Virus record (IMG/VR): IMGVR_UViG_3300031910_000021 | Coordinates: 1 to 41,862 of that record | DNA from: a virus | Taxonomy: Duplodnaviria; Caudoviricetes | Length of the DNA: 41,862 nt | Strand: one strand, 5' to 3' | In this document: positions 6,276-31,685 of the stretch, piece after piece | Numbering within the stretch: the stretch's first letter is position 1 | Layout: each line of letters begins with the position of its first letter | Position numbers and translations under genes: made by a program | Notes under the pieces: generated by a model | What the model saw: only the letters and a program-made list of their open reading frames with translations | Database searches by the model: none | Told to the model about the DNA's origin: nothing

Positions 6276-7115
6276 ATGGCGCTCAAGCGCATCTGGATAC
6301 CCAGTCCGAACTATTCATCTAGGGGTGGGGCAGCAGTCAGATTGCTGGTGCTGCATACCGCTGAAGGATCGAGAACTATCGAGAGCCTTGGCTCGTTTTT
6401 TCAGTCCCCCAGTGCCGGCGTGAGCAGCCATACGGGTGCTGATGACAAGGTCAACACCGTGGGGGAGTATGTCTCCAGGGGCAATAAAAGCTGGACGTGC
6501 GCGAACTTCAACCCGGTGGCCTGCCAGATAGAGATGTGTGCCTTTGCCGCCTGGGACAACGCCGAGTGGCACAGGCATCCCAACATGCTCCAGAACGTGG
6601 CGTCCTGGTTGGCTGAGGAGTCCAAGGCGTTTGGCATCCCTCTCACCATCCTCTCCGACGCCCAGGCCCAGGGCAGCGGGCGAGGTGTCTGCCAACACCG
6701 CCAGTTAGGAGCCGCAGGGGGCGGTCACTCCGACTGTGGGAACGGGTTCCCCATCTCGGAGGTCGTGGCGATGGCCGGCGGCTCGCCAGCACCTCCGCAA
6801 CCATCACAACCACCATCAGGGGGTACGGGGGGCGTTCCTGCTCCCCCATTTCCTTATCCCTCAGACCACTACCTGGGGAGGCCAGACCCTGATCCAAAAT
6901 GCCATTCCGGCTTCTACGGCGGCGTGGATACGACGAATGTACGGACGTGGCAACAGAGGATGCGGGACCGCGGTTGGTCGATCTCAGTTGATGGACAGTA
7001 TGGCGATCAGAGCTACTCGATCTGCCGGCAGTACCAATCTGAAAAGGGACTATCGGTGGACGGTCTGACCGGACCAGCCACTTGGAAAAGTACCTGGGAA
7101 TCCCCTATCACGTAG
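6276..7115 (+). CDS. Endolysin: Amidase_2 domain plus peptidoglycan-binding domain
   Basis: LVLHTAEG...SSH...IEMCAFA...HRQLG...HSDCG zinc amidase motifs; Pro/Gly linker; WQQRM...VDGQYG...YQSEKGLSVDGLTGPATW PG_binding_1. Confidence 0.92.
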   Translation: MALKRIWIPSPNYSSRGGAAVRLLVLHTAEGSRTIESLGSFFQSPSAGVSSHTGADDKVNTVGEYVSRGNKSWTCANFNPVACQIEMCAFAAWDNAEWHRHPNMLQNVASWLAEESKAFGIPLTILSDAQAQGSGRGVCQHRQLGAAGGGHSDCGNGFPISEVVAMAGGSPAPPQPSQPPSGGTGGVPAPPFPYPSDHYLGRPDPDPKCHSGFYGGVDTTNVRTWQQRMRDRGWSISVDGQYGDQSYSICRQYQSEKGLSVDGLTGPATWKSTWESPIT

Positions 7116-15154: not shown

Positions 15155-15556
15155 TCAGTCGGTGACGACTTCGGGAGACCGCCTCTTCTGGATACCGCCC
15201 GAGCGGAACACCTCCTCGTAGCGGACCTCAGCCTGGTCAGTAAATGAGCCGTGGGCGAACTCACCCAGCATTGTGGGGGCGTCGATCCAGGCTGCCGAGC
15301 CGACGTGTGCCCGCTCCTGCATGGTCTCGTCGGGCATCTTGAACTGCACCTGAGGGTCGACGTGATTTATGCGGCCAGGGGCGCTGACCATGAACTCGAT
15401 CATGCCCCGCTGGAAGTCGGTGGGAATGTCGGTGTCAGTACTCAAACCCTCCTCGAATCGCAGCGGGCCGCGCCCACCTGGGGCGTTCGGCCCCATGGTC
15501 TCGTCGTAGGCGTACCGGCCGCGTTCGGGAAACTGCGGTTCGGGGGCCAAACTCAT
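15155..15556 (-). CDS. Conserved-looking virion hypothetical protein
   Basis: GGAGG RBS; GPLRFEEG..TDTDIP...ERAHVGSAAW; first gene after the late promoter at 15587. Confidence 0.65.
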   Translation of the reverse strand: MSLAPEPQFPERGRYAYDETMGPNAPGGRGPLRFEEGLSTDTDIPTDFQRGMIEFMVSAPGRINHVDPQVQFKMPDETMQERAHVGSAAWIDAPTMLGEFAHGSFTDQAEVRYEEVFRSGGIQKRRSPEVVTD

Positions 15557-15594: not shown

Positions 15595-15702
15595 CTGTGC
15601 GGCACTTCCCCCCTAGACCACCCGACGGGCCATGCCTCGCCGTACCTCGTCGTGCCGAGCCAGTCCCCATCTCCCCTCACCAAACCGACGTACCAGGGTG
15701 AA

Positions 15703-15793: not shown

Positions 15794-17431
15794 CTAAGCC
15801 GGCTGTCGGCGCTGACGAGGACGAGCAGTCCTCGCCCGACGCGCCCCAGCCGCCCACGGGGTCGACTGGATCTCAACCTCAGGGACCATCAACACCTGGG
15901 ACATGATGGTGGCGCAGGACAGTGAATCGACGTAGTCGTCATGCACGCCGGCCTCGTTCGGGGCAGCTACCACGAGGTGAGCACCCTTGTAAGTCTTCTC
16001 CACATCCACCATCTGGGTTCGGAACCGACGCCAGGTCTTGGTCCGCTTGGCCCTGGGATGCGCCGGCCACGACAGCAAGCCCCGCTGGAGTAACTGCTGG
16101 AGGTGCTTCCACCTGGCACTTTGATCCTGGATCTGTGACGACAGTGGTTCCACCTGGATACGTGGCAGCAGTCGCTTCAGCCGATCAGCAGCTACGTCGC
16201 CAACTCCTTGAGCGTCAACGCCGCAGGCCACGATGGAGTAGTTGCTGAAGAAATCCACGATCCGCCAGTACTGATCCTCCCATTCTTCCCCGTGCATCTC
16301 CAGCCAGTTCAGGATGCGACAGTCGTATAGCCCCAGTTCGTCCGGTCGGTCCCAGTCTACGAAAAGCACCGTGACCACGGTGGAGTCCATGCGGCGGGCA
16401 AAATCTATGCCGGCCACCAGGGGAGAACGCCAGTAGCTCTGGACGATGGGCATGGTGGGGTCACCAAGCTCGTCCATACGAGTCTCTGTGACCAACATGC
16501 CCCGTTCCAGGAGCCACTCCAACCTGTAGTTGAGCCTGAACTCATCGCTGTCCTCCCCGATCCGCATGGCCTCACCGCGGATGTAGGCCGCGTAGTTCTT
16601 GTTGAACCGGGCGCAGTAGTGCCAGTCGAACCGGAAGTGGTTCTTCTTGCCACCCCGGCGTAGCTCCATGCGCCGGTTCATCTGGATGGTCTTGAAGAAG
16701 GCCCCTTTAATGATGTCAGGAGTGCCGGTCATGACCATGGTCGCCAAATAAAAGGCTCCCATCGGAGCGATGGATTTATTCAAAACGTACTCGTCCACCG
16801 ACTGGGATTCGTCTACAAAGATGACATGGTACGACTTGGACTCGATCTTGGCCCTGGGGTTGGCGGTCTGCATGGCGCAAAAGCTCTGGCATTTTTTCAA
16901 GCGGACCTTCCGCGACCCTGGGCGCACCACGTCATCGATCTCTGGGTCTTCCAGCATCTCCAGCGCCCGCTCTGAGGTCAGACGGTCCACCACACGTCCA
17001 AACAGAGTCTCAACCTGCTGCTCAACTGGAGCGAAGCAACCGACCATGACCCCCTTGCGGAACTTCGCGAGCATGCCCACGTCAGGGAACATCTCAGCTA
17101 ACCGCGGTAACAAGATCATCAGGCTGGCGGCGACGTTGGCGATGACCTCTGTCTTGCCGCTCTGGCGGGAGCATTCCCCAGTGATAGTGGCCCCATCTCC
17201 GCTGATGACGCTCTCGATGATGCGCCGGCCCAGGGTCTCCTGGTAGGGGAACATATCCACCCCGCTGAAGATGAGCGTGAACTCCCACACCTTGTCCACA
17301 AGGCGGTCCACAAACTGCTGGTCGTTGGGGTCCAGGACAGGCGGGGCGTACTGGGCCAGGTCGTCGGAGAGGCCATCCTCACCTGGCTCCAGGTCGTCTT
17401 CCCCCAGGGTGGGGTCATCCACGTAGGTCAT
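15794..17431 (-). CDS. terL: Terminase large subunit
   Basis: YQ motif, Walker A SRQSGKT, Walker B IFVDESQ, motif III TGT, nuclease AGIDFA and HDDYVDS. Confidence 0.95.
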   Translation of the reverse strand: MTYVDDPTLGEDDLEPGEDGLSDDLAQYAPPVLDPNDQQFVDRLVDKVWEFTLIFSGVDMFPYQETLGRRIIESVISGDGATITGECSRQSGKTEVIANVAASLMILLPRLAEMFPDVGMLAKFRKGVMVGCFAPVEQQVETLFGRVVDRLTSERALEMLEDPEIDDVVRPGSRKVRLKKCQSFCAMQTANPRAKIESKSYHVIFVDESQSVDEYVLNKSIAPMGAFYLATMVMTGTPDIIKGAFFKTIQMNRRMELRRGGKKNHFRFDWHYCARFNKNYAAYIRGEAMRIGEDSDEFRLNYRLEWLLERGMLVTETRMDELGDPTMPIVQSYWRSPLVAGIDFARRMDSTVVTVLFVDWDRPDELGLYDCRILNWLEMHGEEWEDQYWRIVDFFSNYSIVACGVDAQGVGDVAADRLKRLLPRIQVEPLSSQIQDQSARWKHLQQLLQRGLLSWPAHPRAKRTKTWRRFRTQMVDVEKTYKGAHLVVAAPNEAGVHDDYVDSLSCATIMSQVLMVPEVEIQSTPWAAGARRARTARPRQRRQPA

Positions 17432-21324: not shown

Positions 21325-22192
21325 GGATCTGCTGGAGCACATCGGGATCGAGGACATCCGGTCCCTGGGCGTCGAGGTGCAGGCGCGCTGCCCCATGCAC
21401 GAGAAGAGGACGGGGGAGCGAGAGCGCCGGCCAGACCATTGGTCGATCAACCGGCACTCAGGGGCCATGCACTGCTTCTCTTGCGAGTACTCAGGCTCCC
21501 TGACCAGGCTCATCATCGACGTAGCCGGCGTGAGCCTGTGGGACGCCAGGAAGATGATCCGCCAGTTCGATGTTGATCTCTCCGATGATGAGGCCCCCTG
21601 GGAGCCACCCATCGGCATGGCGGTGGAGAGTCGGCTGGAGGAGTTCGGGCCACCCCCGCCCCGTGCCCTGGCCCGCCGGCACCTGACCCCCCAGGTCTGC
21701 GACCGATTCCAGCTTCGGTGGGACTACGAGGAGGCTGCCTGGGTTATCCCCATCTTCTCCCCAGGTGGTGAGAAGTGGGGCTGGCAGACCAAAGGGGTCG
21801 ACATCCGCAACCATCCCCCTGGCATCAAGAAGGGCCGCACCTTGTTCGGCCTTGACGTGCTCGTCTGGAACCGGCCCCTCCTGGTGGAGAGTCCATTGGA
21901 CGTGGCTTACTTGGACACCCTGGGCATCCCCGCCGTGGCTGCCTTCGGCTGCCAGGTGTCCGACATGCAGATGAAGCTCCTGGTGGAACGGTGTGACCGC
22001 CTGACCCTGGCCCTGGACGACGACCGCGCCGGGCGGGCCGAGATGCGCCGGCTCCTCAAGGAGAAGTGGCACCATCGCATCCCCATGACCGTGTTCAACT
22101 ACCAGGGCCTGAGTGGCAAGGATCCCGGCGAGCTATCACCGGCCGAGGTCCGCAAGGGCCTGGAGTACGCGGTGCCGGCGGTGTTCTGGTGA
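21317..22192 (+). CDS. dnaG: DNA primase (zinc finger plus TOPRIM)
   Basis: CPMH...CFSC; LVESPLD; LALDDDRAG; KDPGE. Confidence 0.9.
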   Translation: MIEDLLEHIGIEDIRSLGVEVQARCPMHEKRTGERERRPDHWSINRHSGAMHCFSCEYSGSLTRLIIDVAGVSLWDARKMIRQFDVDLSDDEAPWEPPIGMAVESRLEEFGPPPPRALARRHLTPQVCDRFQLRWDYEEAAWVIPIFSPGGEKWGWQTKGVDIRNHPPGIKKGRTLFGLDVLVWNRPLLVESPLDVAYLDTLGIPAVAAFGCQVSDMQMKLLVERCDRLTLALDDDRAGRAEMRRLLKEKWHHRIPMTVFNYQGLSGKDPGELSPAEVRKGLEYAVPAVFW

Positions 22193-22527: not shown

Positions 22528-24098
22528 CCTTCAAGGGGTCGTTGTACCCCTTCCAGGAAGAAGCGGTCGACGCCATGATCGACATGCAACACCTCCTGGT
22601 GGCCTACGAGATGGGCCTGGGCAAGACAGTTATCACTATCGCCGCGGTAGAAAAGCTGATCGAGGACGGCCAGGTGGGCGGGGGGCTGATCATCTGCCCT
22701 GCCTCCATCAAGTTGCAGTGGAAAAGGTTGATCGAGGACTTCGCCCCCGACGCCAACGTGATCGTGGTCAACGGCACAGCCCCTCAGCGCGAGGCCCAGT
22801 ACCAGCGGTACAAGCGCGGCGAGGGTGAGTACTGCATCATCAACCCCGAGCAGATGGTCAACGACTGGGAGATAGTCTCCCGGCTGCCTAGGGACTTCAT
22901 CGTGGCCGACGAGGCGACGTGGTTCAAGAACTTCAAGCCGCAGCGGTCCAAGAAGATCAAGCGGCTCAAGGCCACCTACCAATGGGCCTTGACGGGCCAG
23001 CCAGTGGAGAACCGGGCCGAAGAGGTCTACTCGATCATGTCCTGGATCAACCCCACCGTCCTGGGCAACTTCAAGACCTTCGACGCCGCCTTCATCAAGC
23101 GTGATCCCTGGGGCCGGGTCAGGGTCTATCGGAACCTGCCCACCCTGCACCGGCTCCTGTCCGAGCACATGGTCAGGCGCACCAGGAGCGAGGTAGCCGA
23201 CCAGCTACCCGCGGTAGTGGCACCGGCACCCATCCTGGTGGAAGCAGACCAGGGCACCAGGATGCTGTACCGGCGCATGGTGCATGACCTGGAGGCCGAA
23301 CTGGCTGAGGCCATGAACACCTGGGGGAACTTCAGCCTGAGTGGCTTCTACCGCGGTGAAGAGCAGGGCGAGGCCCGCGGTCGGATCATGTCGAAGATTA
23401 CCTGCATGAGGATGTTGGTTGACCACCCCGAGCTACTGCGGCTCTCCGCGGCGCACTACCGCGGGGTACTACCTGGCAACCGCATGGGCAGCGAGTACGC
23501 CCAGGAGCTACACGCCGCCGGCAGGCTGGAGGGCCTCAAGAAGGCTCCCAAGCTGGATGCCTTGGTGGGGACAGAGGACAAGCCAGGGCTGATCCGAGAG
23601 ATCCTGGAAGCCCACCCCGAGAACAAGATCGTTTTTTTCAGCTTCTTTAAGGACATGCTCGACATCGTGGCCGAGCGCACCAGGAGCCTGACCAAGTCGG
23701 TGCTCTTCACCGGGGCCGTGTCGATCACCAACCGGGACAAGGCCAAGCAGACCTTCGCCACCGATCCTGACACCCGACTCTTCCTCTCCTCCGATGCTGG
23801 CGGGATCGGATTGGATCTTCCTGTAGCAAACTACCTCATATCGTATGATTTGCCCTGGAGCAGCGGAGCGTTCGCCCAACGCCAGAGCAGGATCATCCGC
23901 CTGAGCAGCAAGTTTCCCCAGGTCACCCTGCTGACCATCCAGGTCGCCGGGAGCATCGAGGAGTACCAACACGCCTTGTTGGCCCAGAAGAAAAAGGTGG
24001 CGGAAGCAGTGGTCGACGGCAAGGGGATTAATACCCGAGGAAATCTGACGCTGGATCTCAGAAGCCTGACCGATTTTTTGGGGACCAGTCAGATATAG
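22524..24098 (+). CDS. SNF2-family helicase
   Basis: YPFQ, EMGLGKT, IVADEA, LTGQPVEN, SSDAGGIGLDL, YDLPW, QRQSRIIR. Confidence 0.93.
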   Translation: MTFKGSLYPFQEEAVDAMIDMQHLLVAYEMGLGKTVITIAAVEKLIEDGQVGGGLIICPASIKLQWKRLIEDFAPDANVIVVNGTAPQREAQYQRYKRGEGEYCIINPEQMVNDWEIVSRLPRDFIVADEATWFKNFKPQRSKKIKRLKATYQWALTGQPVENRAEEVYSIMSWINPTVLGNFKTFDAAFIKRDPWGRVRVYRNLPTLHRLLSEHMVRRTRSEVADQLPAVVAPAPILVEADQGTRMLYRRMVHDLEAELAEAMNTWGNFSLSGFYRGEEQGEARGRIMSKITCMRMLVDHPELLRLSAAHYRGVLPGNRMGSEYAQELHAAGRLEGLKKAPKLDALVGTEDKPGLIREILEAHPENKIVFFSFFKDMLDIVAERTRSLTKSVLFTGAVSITNRDKAKQTFATDPDTRLFLSSDAGGIGLDLPVANYLISYDLPWSSGAFAQRQSRIIRLSSKFPQVTLLTIQVAGSIEEYQHALLAQKKKVAEAVVDGKGINTRGNLTLDLRSLTDFLGTSQI

Positions 24099-24108
24099 TT
24101 GGCTCCTA

Positions 24109-24130
24109 CCTGCTCTACTCTTAGAGCAGG
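24109..24130. terminator. Hairpin bordering array 1
   Basis: CCTGCTCTA-ctct-TAGAGCAGG, 9-bp stem. Confidence 0.6.
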
Positions 24131-24583
24131 GATCCGAATCGACAAGCCAGTCCAGTCCAGATCCATACCGACGACCCCTGCCCCGTCTGGTCATCTCGCG
24201 TCGGGCCGCCCCTACCCGCCTCCAGCCGACATGCCTACCCGCACCATGCCCGATCTAGCCACGCCGACAAACCCTCCCAAGTCACGCCGTATCCCATCCC
24301 TCCGAGCCGACATACCCGACCTTGTCCTTCCGGCTCACACCGACATGCCTAACCGGACCATGCCGAGCCGAGCCATCCCGACTCGTCAGCCCAGGCCATG
24401 TTTCATCCCAGATCAGTCCGCGCCAGATCGACGTTCCATGCCGCACCCGATATCAAGCTTGACCCACCCGACTTGCCAACTCTCGATCCAGCCACCTCCA
24501 TTCTGACCGACACGCCCTGCTGCACCCTACCCATCCAAGCCGACTAGCCCCGCCTAAGCCTAGCCGTCCCATGCCGACGAACC
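24131..24583. ncRNA. Pentamer-periodic putative guide array 1: 11 units of (NN-RCC)n-GAC
   Basis: Example unit: gaccc ctgcc ccgtc tggtc atctc gcgtc gggcc gcccc taccc gcctc cagcc GAC. The minus strand reads GTC(GGY-NN)n. Transcribed strand unknown. Confidence 0.75.
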
Positions 24584-24596
24584 AAAGGAGAAAATA

Positions 24597-25325
24597 ATGC
24601 CGAGAACACCAGCAGAACCCGTCGAGGAAATCCCCGTCGCCCGCCTCAAGGAAGACCTTTCCCTCTATCCCCGTCGCAGGATCGACACCACTAACATCTC
24701 CACCCTGGTGGAGGCATATGAAGCCTTCAATGCCGGCGAGGGGGACGAACCTCCCCCAATCATCGTCACCCGCGGCAAAGTCATTGTCGACGGCGTCCAC
24801 CGGGCCAGGGCCAAGCGGAAGGTCTACGGGGATGACGCCACCATCTCCTGCATCGTGCGTCACTACCGGACCAAGGCCGAGATGTTCTACGACGCCTGCA
24901 TGCTCAACAGCGGGAGGGGTCACGACCTGTCGCGATGGGATCAGCTTCATTGTGTCGAACTAGCACGGGAACTCAAGCTGCCCATCGAGCGGCTCGCCAA
25001 GGCCCTGGGCTGGACTTCTGAGCGGCTCCTGTCCTTCAGCGAGAGGCGGGCCACCCAGACCCTGAGCGGCAAAAAGACGCACCTCAAGTCTTCTCTCCTG
25101 TCCCAGAAGAACGGCCCCATAAGCGAAGAGGTGGAAGCGATCAACGAGACACCTGGCGGTGTCGACGGCATGTCACCGGCCTACCACGCCCGCATGCTGC
25201 TGATGCACCTCCAGGCCGACAGTATCCCCTACGAGGCCAACCTGGCTCACAGGTTGGCTGACCTGGCAGCCGCCATCGAAGAGTGGCTGTCCAACTATGG
25301 GGCCGAAGAAGAAGAAGCCCAATAG
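24597..25325 (+). CDS. ParB/Srx N-terminal domain protein
   Basis: AAGGAG RBS; LYPRR...PPIIVT...IVDGVHRARA...LNSGRGHDLS. Confidence 0.8.
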   Translation: MPRTPAEPVEEIPVARLKEDLSLYPRRRIDTTNISTLVEAYEAFNAGEGDEPPPIIVTRGKVIVDGVHRARAKRKVYGDDATISCIVRHYRTKAEMFYDACMLNSGRGHDLSRWDQLHCVELARELKLPIERLAKALGWTSERLLSFSERRATQTLSGKKTHLKSSLLSQKNGPISEEVEAINETPGGVDGMSPAYHARMLLMHLQADSIPYEANLAHRLADLAAAIEEWLSNYGAEEEEAQ

Positions 25326-25337
25326 AAAGGAATCACC

Positions 25338-26117
25338 ATGTCCGCATCCGATATTTTCAAGTTCCAGTCCCGGTGGACGACCTACACCGGATCCCTCCAC
25401 ATCAACACCCTGGTCGGTGGCATCCCCAAGGACGGGGCCACCATCCACGCCTTCGTCAAGGCCCGCATCACCGACAACGCCTCCGAGATGAGCCGCATTG
25501 CCGAAGAGACCATGGTCGAAATGGGTCTTGACCCTGTTCTCGACAAGGATGAACTGAGCGCCGCCCAGGTCGATGAGATCGTGGACAAGGTGTCCAAGAA
25601 GGCCGTGGCCGGCAACGGCTTCAAGCAGATCAACGGTGAACTGGTCTGGGAGGGTCGCTGTCTCAAGGCTGCCCTGAACGAGGCGTGCAATGCCCTCTAC
25701 CCAGGCGTGGAATCCTTCCCCGGCAAGCCCGACAAAACCAAGAAGGGCCTCAAGAGCTACTTCATAGAGCGGGTGGAAGTCGTTGACTACTACATCCCCC
25801 TGGGCCGCACCGAGCCTGACATCAAGGGCGAGGAGCGCATCAAGCACATCAGCGGCCCCCAAGGCAAGCGCAGCGCCATCAACCTCGTGGACGTATGCAC
25901 TGACCTGGACATCACCTTCACCATCAAGGTGCTGAACGACTGGGTGCCACAGGAGTTGTGGCAGGAGCTTTTTGAGTACGTCGAGTTGGGTGGCGTATGG
26001 GCTGACCGCGCCCGCGGTGACGGGCGTTGCGAGCTAACCTCCTGGGAAAAATCGACCGACTCCAGGAGCGTCACCCGCTCCAACGGCAAGCGCCGGCTTG
26101 CCACCACCGCGTCATAG
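25338..26117 (+). CDS. Stand-alone Cas7/RAMP-like protein
   Basis: N-terminal strand TYTGSLHINTLVGGIP; ELVWEGRCLKAAL (cf. RAMP p.ipgssLKGal); LDITFTIKV; C-terminal G-rich loop GGVWADRARGDGRCEL (cf. GlGa.Rs.G.Grf). Confidence 0.75.
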   Translation: MSASDIFKFQSRWTTYTGSLHINTLVGGIPKDGATIHAFVKARITDNASEMSRIAEETMVEMGLDPVLDKDELSAAQVDEIVDKVSKKAVAGNGFKQINGELVWEGRCLKAALNEACNALYPGVESFPGKPDKTKKGLKSYFIERVEVVDYYIPLGRTEPDIKGEERIKHISGPQGKRSAINLVDVCTDLDITFTIKVLNDWVPQELWQELFEYVELGGVWADRARGDGRCELTSWEKSTDSRSVTRSNGKRRLATTAS

Positions 26118-26121
26118 CAGG

Positions 26122-26145
26122 GAGGGGCGGCTTAGACCGCCCCTC
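26122..26145. terminator. Hairpin bordering array 2
   Basis: GAGGGGCGG-cttaga-CCGCCCCTC, 9-bp stem. Confidence 0.6.
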
Positions 26146-26909
26146 ACACCAAACCAAACCGACTTGCCGTTTTCCTTGCCGTGCCTGACCCGATCACGCC
26201 TAGCTGACTCGCCAACCCATGTCTCCCCCAGCCGACTCGCTCCGACAACCCTGACTACCCGACCCTGGCCGTGCCCGCTCAGGCCCTGCCGACTAGCCTC
26301 ACCCGTCCCGGCCCCGTCCTGCCAACCCTTGCCGTGCCGACACGCCTGCCCCAGCCATCCCTCGCCGTTACGGGCCTCGCCTAGCCGACTATCCCCGCCT
26401 TCCCGTGCCAAGCCGCTCCGACATCTCCGGCCCGACCCCCTCAAGCCAATCCGACCCGCCATCCCCGTTCTTTTCTCTCTCAGGCCCAGCCGACTCGCCA
26501 CGCCTCGTCCCCCCCTTCCCGGCCTACCCCACCCTGACCGACCCGCCAAGCCTGCTCCGACCCAGCCGCGCCCTCGCCAGACCTTGCCATGCCGACACTC
26601 CAGTCCCTGCCCCCCTTGCCCCGAACCACCCCAGCCGACTGCCCTTGCCGCATCACGCCGACCCAGGCCAGACCTCGCCAAGCCGACTCGCCCATCCCTG
26701 TCCACCCATCTCATCCCGACTTGCCGTCCCGCGCCACGCCCCGCCGAGTCTTATCCCGCCGAGTCATGCCGACTCGCCACGCCGCGCCGGCCCGTGCCGC
26801 GCCTCGCCTCGCCCCGCCAAACCGACCCACCAATCTCCTGCCCAGTCAACCCGTGCCCCGCCGACTCGCCTCGCCGTGTCATGCCCTGCCCTTGCCTCGC
26901 CTAGCTGAC
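26146..26909. ncRNA. Pentamer-periodic putative guide array 2: about 18 units of (NN-RCC)n-GAC
   Basis: Example units: tagcc tcacc cgtcc cggcc ccgtc ctgcc aaccc ttgcc gtgcc GAC acgcc tgccc cagcc atccc tcgcc gttac gggcc tcgcc tagcc GAC. ORFs here are low-complexity artefacts. Confidence 0.8.
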
Positions 26910-26914
26910 TAACC

Positions 26915-27301: not shown

Positions 27302-27769
27302 ATGGCAACCAAGACCAAGACCAAGCCGAAGCTGGATCTCAAGGGCCTGCGCCAGGAGGTGCGCGAGTGGTACGCCCTCAAGCGTCAGGATGCCCTGCTG
27401 GCACCCAAGCTGAAGAGAGGCACCGACCGGTTCAAGGAACTCCTGGGAATATATGGAGAGAAGGATCCCTCAGACGGCTCTATTTATCTGGATCTGGAAG
27501 AGCCGATGGGGGACCAGCGCATCCAGTTCTTGAAGAACCTGTGCGTGGTGTCCAAGAACATCGACGTGGAGGTGGCCCAGGAAATCCTGGAGTCAAAGGG
27601 CATCTGGGAGGAGATGTCGGAAGAGATCCGCGTCCCCGATGAGAGCCGGATCGCCGCTGCCTATTACGACAACCGCCTCAACGATGACGAGTTCGCCCGC
27701 ATGTTCCCAGCAGTCACTTCATATCGCTTCTTCCTGTTGGACGAAGATCGGAAGCCAGTTCGGGCATGA
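27302..27769 (+). CDS. Hypothetical protein
   Basis: 155 aa; TACCCT -10-like box 7 nt before the ATG (leaderless geometry). Confidence 0.7.
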   Translation: MATKTKTKPKLDLKGLRQEVREWYALKRQDALLAPKLKRGTDRFKELLGIYGEKDPSDGSIYLDLEEPMGDQRIQFLKNLCVVSKNIDVEVAQEILESKGIWEEMSEEIRVPDESRIAAAYYDNRLNDDEFARMFPAVTSYRFFLLDEDRKPVRA

Positions 27770-29321: not shown

Positions 29322-31685
29322 ATGGTGCCGGCAAGGCCCGCCGTCGTGTCGGAAAGGGGAGGGGGCCGGTACCCGCCACCGGCCCCTTCCCTCAACATCC
29401 CGAAGTGTGACCTTGTCTGGATCACACCGGGACAGACTGCGGGGGACTGGAACTACGGGGGCGGGGCGCAACATCGGCGCTGCATCCTGCTCATCGACCA
29501 CGAAGGGGATCACGATACTGGCGAGGGGGAGCGGGACCGCAACGTGGTCAACCGCTCCAGGTACAAGTGGGGGGCACGCGGCTTCACCACCGAGCAGGTC
29601 TATCGATCCGAGACCATCAGGATCGAATGGGAGGCGCGGAACCGCCCCCAACCCATCAAGAAGCTCAAGGACTTCCACGAGTTTGAGTCCTGGGTGGAGG
29701 CCGGCTGCCCAGGTGTGCGCCGGCCCGTCGAGCGGGGCTGCGGCCCCATCGCCACCATTCGCACCATGGAGCAGCTAAGAGAAGTGGTGGAGATCTACTC
29801 GGCATTTTCCGAGTTCGCCTTCGACGTAGAGACCCGCGGTAGCCGGCGGGTTCGCATGCTGCAACCGGGTCGGAGAGTGCTATCGAGATACGCGGAACAG
29901 ACCTCGCCCTGCCTGGCCTGTGGCAACCCCATCTCTTCCAGGCGGCGGGCCTACTGCTCCGACCTATGCCGCAAGACGGCTGACAAGGACAAGCCGGCCC
30001 TCGACACCCGAACCAACGAGGTTTGGTGTCTATCCCTCGCCGGCCCAGGCGTGTCTCACGTCATACCCATGGGGCACCCCGACAAACGCCAGCAGCTACA
30101 TCGGGCCGATGTTTTTGAGGCCCTGCGCCCGTTGTTCTTCTCCAGCCGGCGCAAGATCAATCAGAACGTCGGGTTCGACTTGTTGAGCATCGCCAAGTAC
30201 TACGAGGGCAAGATCCCACCCCCGCCCTACGCCGACATCATGACCATGGTGTTCTTGATCAACGAGAACCTTCAGTCCTACCGGCTGGAGGCCCTCACCA
30301 AGCACTACCTGGGCTACAAGTACGCCGAGAAGTTGGGCGAGGAAGCGTACAACGTCGAGTGGAAGCGGGCCATGAGGTACTCGATCATCGACGCCAAGAT
30401 GGCCTGGATGCTGTGGTGGAAGCTCCACCACGTCCTGGAGGACAAGCCGAAACTGGGCAACCTCTTCCGCCTGGAGATGGACGTGCTTCGGGTACTACTC
30501 GCCATGAAGCAGACGGGGGCCTACGTCGACATCGAGGGGTTCCGGACCCTGAGGCCCCAGTTGGAGACCCAACTGGCTGAGGTCACCAGCACCATCCGCG
30601 ATCTCGGCTTCACGGGCAATCTCAACAGCACCCACCAGCTAGCCAGGTTCCTCTACGACGAGAAGAAGCTGCCCTGCCTGTGGATGACCGAGACCGGCCA
30701 GCGGTCCACCGCGGCCAAGGCCCTCAAGTCCCTGGCTCGCCGGCACCAGGAGCCGCGCAAGATCCTGGAGTACAAGGACGTGAACAAGCTGCTCAGCACC
30801 TATGTGGCCGGGTTCATCCCCACCATCGATGACGACAGCCGGATCAGGGCCAGCTTCAACCAGGCCGTTGCCCGAACGGGCAGACTCTCGTGCAGCGGTC
30901 CCAACCTCCAGAACATCCCAGCCAGGTACAAGGAGTCGGTCGAGGCCACCCTGATACGACAACTTTTCGTGGCCCCACCTGGCCGGCTACTCATCGTGGC
31001 CGACTACAGCCAGATCGAGCTACGCGTCCTGGCCCACATGACCAGGGACAAGATGCTGATGTACGCCTACACCCACGGTCTCGATCTCCACACCCAGACG
31101 GCCAGCCTGGTCTACCGGGTGCCCCAGGGCGATGTCAGCGTCGAACAGCGGGCCATCGCAAAAAACTGCAACTTCAACTTCGCTTTTGAGGGCGGATTTA
31201 CCAGGGTCATGGACATGTCAGGCATCGGTGAGGCACAGGCTCGCGCCGTCTACGACGCCTGGCACCGGGCCTACCCCGGTGTCAAGAGGTGGGGGGCCGT
31301 GACCAAGCGGTCCTGCCTCCAGCACGGCTATGTGGAGACCCTCTATGGGCGAAAAAGACGTTTGAAAGACATCTCTTCCCGAGACCCCAAGGACCGCAGC
31401 TATGCCGAGCGCCAGGCGGTCAATCATCCAGTACAAGGCACCGCGGCTGACCTGGCGAAGATCGCCATCGTCCGCGTCCACCAGGCCCTCCAGGAGTTCC
31501 ATGCCGATCTCGTGCTTCAGATCCATGACGAGTTCGTGATCGAGTGCGACGAGGGGGAGGTGGACGAGGCCATACCGTTTATCAGAGAGGCCATGGAGGA
31601 CATCCGCCTGGATGACCGGCCAGTCCTCGATGTACCCCTGGAGGTCACCATCGGGGTCGGTAAGAACTGGAGCGAGGCGAAATGA
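29322..31685 (+). CDS. polA: Family A DNA polymerase (3'-5' exonuclease plus polymerase); start uncertain
   Basis: ExoI FDVET, ExoII NVGFDL, ExoIII YSIID; TGRLSCSGPNLQNIP; motif A ADYSQIELR; motif B; motif C QIHDE. Confidence 0.95.
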   Translation: MVPARPAVVSERGGGRYPPPAPSLNIPKCDLVWITPGQTAGDWNYGGGAQHRRCILLIDHEGDHDTGEGERDRNVVNRSRYKWGARGFTTEQVYRSETIRIEWEARNRPQPIKKLKDFHEFESWVEAGCPGVRRPVERGCGPIATIRTMEQLREVVEIYSAFSEFAFDVETRGSRRVRMLQPGRRVLSRYAEQTSPCLACGNPISSRRRAYCSDLCRKTADKDKPALDTRTNEVWCLSLAGPGVSHVIPMGHPDKRQQLHRADVFEALRPLFFSSRRKINQNVGFDLLSIAKYYEGKIPPPPYADIMTMVFLINENLQSYRLEALTKHYLGYKYAEKLGEEAYNVEWKRAMRYSIIDAKMAWMLWWKLHHVLEDKPKLGNLFRLEMDVLRVLLAMKQTGAYVDIEGFRTLRPQLETQLAEVTSTIRDLGFTGNLNSTHQLARFLYDEKKLPCLWMTETGQRSTAAKALKSLARRHQEPRKILEYKDVNKLLSTYVAGFIPTIDDDSRIRASFNQAVARTGRLSCSGPNLQNIPARYKESVEATLIRQLFVAPPGRLLIVADYSQIELRVLAHMTRDKMLMYAYTHGLDLHTQTASLVYRVPQGDVSVEQRAIAKNCNFNFAFEGGFTRVMDMSGIGEAQARAVYDAWHRAYPGVKRWGAVTKRSCLQHGYVETLYGRKRRLKDISSRDPKDRSYAERQAVNHPVQGTAADLAKIAIVRVHQALQEFHADLVLQIHDEFVIECDEGEVDEAIPFIREAMEDIRLDDRPVLDVPLEVTIGVGKNWSEAK

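Follow-up and report, generated by a model that had tools for sequence, protein, structure and literature searches.

How can a phage carry a guide against an essential gene of its relatives when it has the same gene itself? The question is raised by a 41,862-base tailed phage record (IMG/VR record IMGVR_UViG_3300031910_000021; the whole stretch is called the window here), which holds portal, capsid, terminase, WhiB, primase, DnaB, SNF2 helicase, PolA, and RecA genes together with a cassette predicted to be a VIPR system. VIPR is a CRISPR relative described in 2026 that combines a Vipr RAMP protein with vrRNA and vap, and its dinucleotides pair with DNA such that every third target base is skipped (10.64898/2026.04.26.720920). 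The reading put forward here, to which we give a probability of roughly 70% from the letters of the window and its relatives, is that one VIPR guide is aimed at the relatives' polA, and that selection likely moved the carrier's own Leu-Leu-Ser codons to the alternative families, which would keep the guide from binding.

A guide unit matches the polA gene of related phages

Two features carry the argument.

26640..26687, minus strand: guide unit directed against the ExoII site in the polA of related phages, a GTC junction plus nine pentamers, of which the first eight are informative
30174..30200, plus strand: the carrier's own polA site FDLLSIAKY, with the switched codons TTG TTG AGC at 30180-30188; 11/16 to the guide

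The polA site lies inside the Pfam 3'-5' exonuclease domain, and we take it to be the ExoII (NxxFD) motif. Read from 26687 down to 26640, the minus-strand letters are those reported by the first-pass annotation, i.e., GTC followed by nine triplet-plus-dinucleotide units with the dinucleotides TT GA CT CT TC GT GC AA CA. The same annotation decoded the whole series to the polA motif; this holds for the first eight dinucleotides, which match polA ExoII of related phages at up to 16/16 positions, but not for the ninth (CA), which matches no target. Exact matches to the first eight units in IMG/VR were phage polA ExoII sites in 9 of 14 cases, and since all nine have a Tyr codon at the next place, the ninth dinucleotide falls outside the match; it probably belongs to the unit junction. 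The exact nine-unit pattern had no match in IMG/VR.

Among 30 related records (935,403 bases), which served as the comparison set, the best match of the guide was 17/18, a score reached by none of about 100 order-shuffled guides. The antiparallel reading with a 1-nucleotide skip gave 16/16, compared with 13 to 14/16 in seven other tests of register and orientation. For the three guides tested, a skip of 1 alone works, and their targets are in codon phase, the wobble position being the one skipped; readings with another skip length or in parallel orientation scored lower and were rejected. When the guide was looked for in other viruses, three matches were obtained, all of them strains of the window phage.

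The carrier's own polA site is switched to alternative codon families

The carrier's FDLLSIAKY is encoded as first described, by TTC GAC TTG TTG AGC ATC GCC AAG TAC. Its match to the guide (11/16) compares with 12 to 16/16 in 24 aligned relatives, none of which is as low. The three adjacent family switches place four mismatches in the middle of the eight-unit guide. The Ile found in place of the guide's Val is the majority state of the relatives and not specific to the carrier. Because the motif is constrained and wobble changes may be insufficient, six-codon residues would offer the sole silent way to break codon positions 1 and 2. These codons had been called atypical for the gene, which holds for TTG, used for 7 of the 64 Leu residues of PolA, but not for AGC; the latter is the commonest Ser codon of the carrier's polA (14/34) and is therefore unusual only at the conserved ExoII site.

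The polA alignment at the site comprised 49 loci, six from strains of the window phage and 43 others. As self-avoidance had led the first-pass annotation to predict, TTG TTG AGC occurs in 0 of the 43. Leu-Leu-Ser is kept in 28 loci, 21 of which use CTN CTN TCN, the state that had been proposed for relatives; five show one family switch, two show two, and none shows three. In a quick tree, the carrier polA belongs to a clade of 10 rows (SH-aLRT, i.e., Shimodaira-Hasegawa-like approximate likelihood ratio test, 98), and the TTG TTG AGC state is derived: the other nine members all have CTN CTN, eight of them with TCN, and both perfect targets fall into the same clade. Fully switched adjacent triples number 1 of 35 switchable ones in the carrier, the polA site only, and 1 of 301 in the relatives.

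Two recombinant strains, L010 and L011, are identical to the window up to 30427 and then diverge in the 3' part of polA; the cassette and the recoded site are kept, and polA is replaced from 30428 on. Their polA contains an in-frame insertion of about 285 residues (window 30887-30900), apparently an intein with an HNH domain, which directly precedes the PNLQNIP site spelled by one of the guides; an insertion also occurs in L013 at this position.

The third letter of the triplets tracks the skipped base

The first-pass annotation had explained the codon choice as self-avoidance of a wobble-skipping guide. The avoidance is supported by the results above, but the wobble-blindness did not stand, because the third triplet letter records the wobble base and the guide as written is thus not blind to it. 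This letter agrees with the skipped base of the target at 20.1 of 40 positions, compared with 14.1 ± 1.6 in 20,000 within-guide permutations, none of which reached the observed count. Read as two scaffold letters plus three, unit 26640-26687 contains 23 of 24 contiguous bases of the polA of related record L245. As the third letter tracks the skipped base, the guides look like contiguous copies of rival alleles with two scaffold letters per three bases. In the portion of the SUSP1 structure report available, the third triplet letter is held by the protein and unpaired (10.64898/2026.04.26.720927); either three bases are read by the Vipr studied here, or the letter preserves a trace of copying from a template. 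The third-base match of the carrier's own polA site (4/8) equals the relatives' mean (4.3), so the carrier's escape at polA rests on codon positions 1 and 2. The third-letter signal bears on the open question of guide acquisition.

Proposed mechanism

By analogy with SUSP1, the array would be transcribed and cut into units, each coated by Vipr; the dinucleotides would base-pair with double-stranded DNA at three-base intervals, silencing or blocking the bound gene of a co-infecting relative. In an alternative order of events, the resistant allele may arise under a rival's copy of the guide and then join the cassette by recombination. More tentatively, and at somewhat less than even odds, lytic-type soil phages may harbor natural modules of guide plus recoded rescue, in which a guide copied letter by letter from a rival allele, wobble base included and with two scaffold letters per three bases, is inherited together with a silently recoded version of the very gene it targets, an essential one. 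If this is true, rescue modules would spread like an RNA-guided drive, leaving islands of rare Leu, Ser, and Arg codons.

Other guides of the phage

Beyond the polA unit, three units beat their shuffles, namely, the solo guide (23/24), the helicase guide (21/22), and the first unit of array 2 (15/16).

15627..15689, minus strand: solo guide of 12 pentamers, spelling FEEGLSTDTDIP, inserted in an intergenic motif
15422..15457, minus strand: own copy of the solo-guide target, in open reading frame (ORF) 15155-15556; same 12 residues, 21/24
24173..24230, minus strand: guide against the relatives' SNF2 helicase gene (antisense), up to 21/22
23846..23878, plus strand: own helicase site, 17/22, with a silent TTG at 23850 and Ala-to-Ser and Tyr-to-Phe differences
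26866..26909, minus strand: guide against the relatives' copy of ORF 27302-27769, 15/16
26827..26865, minus strand: irregular guide, antisense of the polA PNLQNVP allele (Val allele, extra base)

The solo-guide insertion is absent from 10 of 10 relatives. All three mismatches to the carrier's own site lie inside TTG AGT, and the match becomes 24/24 if synonymous families are allowed. Searches of Pfam, PHROG, and the Atlas gave no name for ORF 15155-15556. At the own site of guide 26866-26909 (27665-27688), the match is lowered to 13/16 through amino-acid differences. Overall, the carrier has the lowest score, or one close to it, at four of the five guide footprints. The PNLQN guide is common to the window phage and L124, a second carrier in the phage family.

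Helicase codons 421 to 450 (window 23784-23873) have a third-position identity to relatives of 0.34, compared with about 0.65 elsewhere, and this stretch overlaps the footprint of the helicase guide. L013, in which no Vipr was found, shares the carrier's helicase changes, and G005, likewise with no Vipr found, has TTA AGC at the solo-guide site. Two candidates were rejected: unit 26720 (12/12 in one record, p 0.07), whose third letters misfit (z 0.1), and the merged unit 24472 (25/34 in one record), a parsing artefact. The third-letter fit of unit 26208 gave z 2.8.

Codon-family switches across the carrier genome

Switching of Leu was scored at codons where relatives conserve Leu as CTN; unit 26720 does not enter this count because its footprint has no qualifying codon. 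In the first four footprints, 4 of 4 such codons are family-switched, compared with 51 of 460 outside (p 1.8e-4). With the unrecoded PNLQN footprint added, the figure is 4 of 5 (p 8e-4), and without the polA ExoII site it is 2 of 2 (p 0.013). Selection of the carrier allele into the alternative codon families appears likely on these statistical grounds. The distance between a guide and its own recoded gene ranges from 0.15 to 3.5 kb.

Recoded sites in other Vipr carriers

A blind self-scan covered 285 guides, drawn from 44 sequences that bear them; whole-sequence scanning did not extend to G019, to most of G032, or to part of G029, and G012 and G013 entered it without their final few hundred bases. 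The true synonym table gave seven matches, compared with two for each of two decoy tables. Four matches have at least three swapped bases, two of them in the window phage and two in virus G028, a distant VIPR phage whose Vipr is 33% identical. In G028 (77994-78148 and 81886-82032; L080, L153), two guides lie about 150 bases from silently recoded sites in the virus's own genes. One matches its own gene at 18/18 positions synonymously and at 15/18 in DNA, and its footprint holds the only three TTG among the gene's 15 Leu codons; genome-wide, TTG and TTA account for 24 of 1,364 Leu codons. The other matches the virus's own vipr gene at 16/16 synonymously versus 12/16 in DNA, with Arg, Leu, and Ser all switched. 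The pattern of this vipr guide had seven exact matches in IMG/VR, none in a vipr gene, and the best other vipr reached 15/16.

In L124 (Vipr 83% identical), one guide matches 4 of the 30 related records at 18/18 and the carrier itself at 15/18, and self-avoidance works through amino-acid differences. An L124 guide matches ORF 27302-27769 of the window phage at 17/18; hence, carriers may target each other. In L124, the region 503-1165 contains two guide units common with the window phage, one with the same extra base. Guides of L125 to L127 had no target among the related records, and in the self-scan no clear self-homologous site emerged from Vipr carriers of the prophage type.

Observations against the proposed selection and alternative explanations

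Several observations weigh against guide-driven recoding as proposed here. A match of 80% was used to call a natural VIPR target (10.64898/2026.04.26.720920), and the 21/24 self-match of the solo guide (87.5%) exceeds this threshold; moreover, 3 of 10 relatives score as low as the carrier at this site. The PNLQN guide matches its own site (30900-30920) at 13/14, a score also seen in 23 of 25 relatives, and the Leu there is unswitched. No significant target among the 30 related records was found for 22 of the 27 scored units. The carrier's background of family switches is fairly high (13.9%; relatives, 6 to 16%), and the carrier contains four more clusters of three switches in nine codons for which no guide was found; they may be footprints of lost or unseen guides. 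The four clear recoding cases are confined to 2 of the 44 guide-bearing sequences. The vipr gene of G028 is itself rich in TTG and AGA, and a close rival of this virus was looked for with none found to supply its ancestral codons. Finally, the portion available of the SUSP1 report gives no account of how far VIPR tolerates mismatches (10.64898/2026.04.26.720927).

These four clusters lie at window 17101-17113, 16522-16537, 21890-21911, and 6318-6342; one of them is in the terminase gene (TTG TTA, TTA).

Among the alternatives, the one that survives best, though we consider it unlikely, is a filter on the side of the guides: codons drifted first, and only guides missing the carrier survived, in which case the avoidance would be real and the codons unselected. 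The background rates of switching (Leu, 11%; Ser, 15%) predict about 0.06 fully switched triples in a set of 35, the other footprints differ by plain amino-acid changes, and G005 has its TTA AGC without an adjacent guide, all of which would suit such a filter. It accounts poorly for G028, where three TTG in nine codons at a rate of 1.8% (about 5e-6) are unlikely to have pre-existed, and for the solo and both G028 sites, where every mismatch is silent and all other read positions match.

Somewhat less probable still is a guide that is no more than a relic or that the phage tolerates, with the own site still bound or the unit not made, or with partial binding tuning the phage's own genes. Self-matches of 21/24 and 13/14 do exist, and several units contain extra bases; on the other hand, the polA unit has a regular structure, its third letters continue to follow the target, both vipr and vap are intact, and at four of the five footprints the carrier scores at or close to the bottom. 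Chance resemblance of a low-complexity repeat to a conserved polA motif is largely refuted: in a large collection, 16 specified bases will sometimes match fortuitously, as the 5 of 14 exact IMG/VR matches at unrelated sites illustrate, but the other nine fall on the same polA site, the shuffled guides never reach the score, and four guides independently match genes of this phage family in codon phase.

The cassette and the predicted Vipr protein

The reading of unit 26640-26687 as a VIPR guide also depends on the genes and repeats around it.

25338..26117, plus strand: predicted Vipr, RAMP/Cas7 fold, 259 residues, C-terminal Gly-rich loop (structure model, Foldseek, homologues with arrays)
24597..25325, plus strand: ParB-N-like accessory gene, candidate vap (PHROG ParB-like, E 1e-4; ESM Atlas ParB-N clusters, 0.98)
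26146..26914, minus strand: array 2, antisense to vipr, with about 18 guide units punctuated by GTC
24131..24583, minus strand: array 1, about 10 guide units between the helicase gene and vap
26122..26145, minus strand: GC hairpin, possibly ending the transcript, at the 3' end of array 2 (fold z -2.4)

The AlphaFold model of ORF 25338-26117 has a predicted local distance difference test (pLDDT) value of 80.6, and its best Foldseek matches are chains of CRISPR Csm and type VII complexes (E 2e-6); the fold assignment rests on these CRISPR chains, no Vipr structure being among the PDB matches. Profile searches of Pfam and PHROG gave no match for this ORF. Its G-rich loop is conserved, and most Vipr homologues are flanked by arrays of the same antisense triplet-plus-dinucleotide grammar. 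The candidate vap lies directly upstream of the predicted vipr, and both reading frames are intact; as regards named vap classes, ParB was not found in the supplement of 10.64898/2026.04.26.720920.

Arrays are present on both sides of vap-vipr; the 48 bases of unit 26640-26687 belong to array 2, which is intergenic and adjoins ORF 25338-26117. A third array is formed by the solo locus (15604-15694), likewise of triplet-plus-dinucleotide units cut by GTC. The 5-nucleotide (nt) units consist of a triplet plus a variable dinucleotide; the triplets are GGN or GAN, with GGG, GGA, and GAN common and thus no strict GGY. Guide units abut at GTC without an evident tail (fold of unit 26640-26687 versus shuffles, z 0.23), and several contain extra bases. 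A terminator scan did not pick up the GC hairpin at 26122-26145, and no promoter or terminator consensus was found. No cas gene was seen among the scanned window proteins; repeat scans of the window revealed no CRISPR repeat-spacer array, and the window has a single RAMP gene only. On sequence grounds, the cassette is predicted to be VIPR by its stand-alone RAMP fold, adjacent 5-nt repeats, targets with a 1-nt skip, and vap gene, and is left without a type because two features of type II (SUSP1), strict GGY and a structured 3' tail, are lacking.

In relatives with both flanks, the cassette position is empty in 9 of 16 and occupied by other, unrelated genes (1.5 to 3.1 kb) in 7 of 16; the flanks of the two perfect-target records were too short for this comparison. 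Vipr was not found in any of 10 relatives searched, only two of which are at least 90% complete, in a search without a positive control. The interval from the helicase gene to ORF 26915 (window 24099-26914) is a cargo hotspot across relatives. In strain L026, compared at window 24579-24871, the 5' part of the ParB-like gene is divergent, with vipr and array 2 identical.

Comparison with known systems

What is described here shares with published VIPR a phage RAMP gene accompanied by a single accessory gene, arrays of 5-nt repeats, decoding with a 1-nt skip that falls on the wobble position, and targets on either strand in competing phages; NNNGG-type repeats and staggered arrays are also listed there (10.64898/2026.04.26.720920). 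It differs in that the arrays are antisense to vipr, cut by GTC, and without an evident tail; in that the triplets are GGN/GAN with purines allowed, whereas SUSP1 excludes them; in that the third letter tracks the skipped base; and in that the genes targeted are essential ones that the carrier shares with its close kin.

T4-like free-standing homing endonucleases, as covered in the part of PMC2988022 available, cause marker exclusion, with the carrier allele replacing the rival's. Like them, the window phage would carry a weapon that strikes a specific site in a co-infecting relative's version of a gene, at a distance of hundreds to thousands of bases from the weapon's own gene; unlike their protein-guided cleavage, RNA-guided binding is predicted here, and the ParB-like partner is no demonstrated nuclease.

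A second parallel is engineered. Cleave and Rescue elements carry a recoded rescue copy. As far as the portion of PMC11432399 available goes, they resemble the present case in that a guide against an essential gene is carried together with a resistant copy; they are synthetic and used in insects, whereas the arrangement here is natural and phage-borne, and above-Mendelian spread is no part of the evidence.

A further comparison is with the account of VIPR in phage-satellite competition. In the text available of that preprint, escape requires changed amino-acid-determining positions, and the lower self-match of vrRNA-targeting guides is read as autoimmunity avoidance (10.64898/2026.10.15.759431). 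Guides on catalytic motifs and vipr-targeting guides are common to both cases; unlike that account, Leu, Ser, and Arg switches here alter read positions silently in the carrier's own protein genes. VIPR itself, the wobble alignment, catalytic-motif targets, and a lower self-match for some guides are thus already in print. The text available of the three VIPR preprints, outside of which lie their supplementary tables and figures, contains no mention of silent family switching at Leu, Ser, or Arg, and literature searches found no paper on six-codon escape from VIPR. The case made for the gapped code in the published text available is that silent mutation cannot escape it. The six-codon amino acids are a loophole in this code, since their read positions change silently, and carriers appear to exploit it against essential genes that they share with their rivals. 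This would amount to a route to self/non-self discrimination free of a protospacer-adjacent motif (PAM), would make codon-family switches a sequence signature for past and present targets, and would provide naturally occurring pairs of alleles on which VIPR's tolerance of mismatches could be measured.
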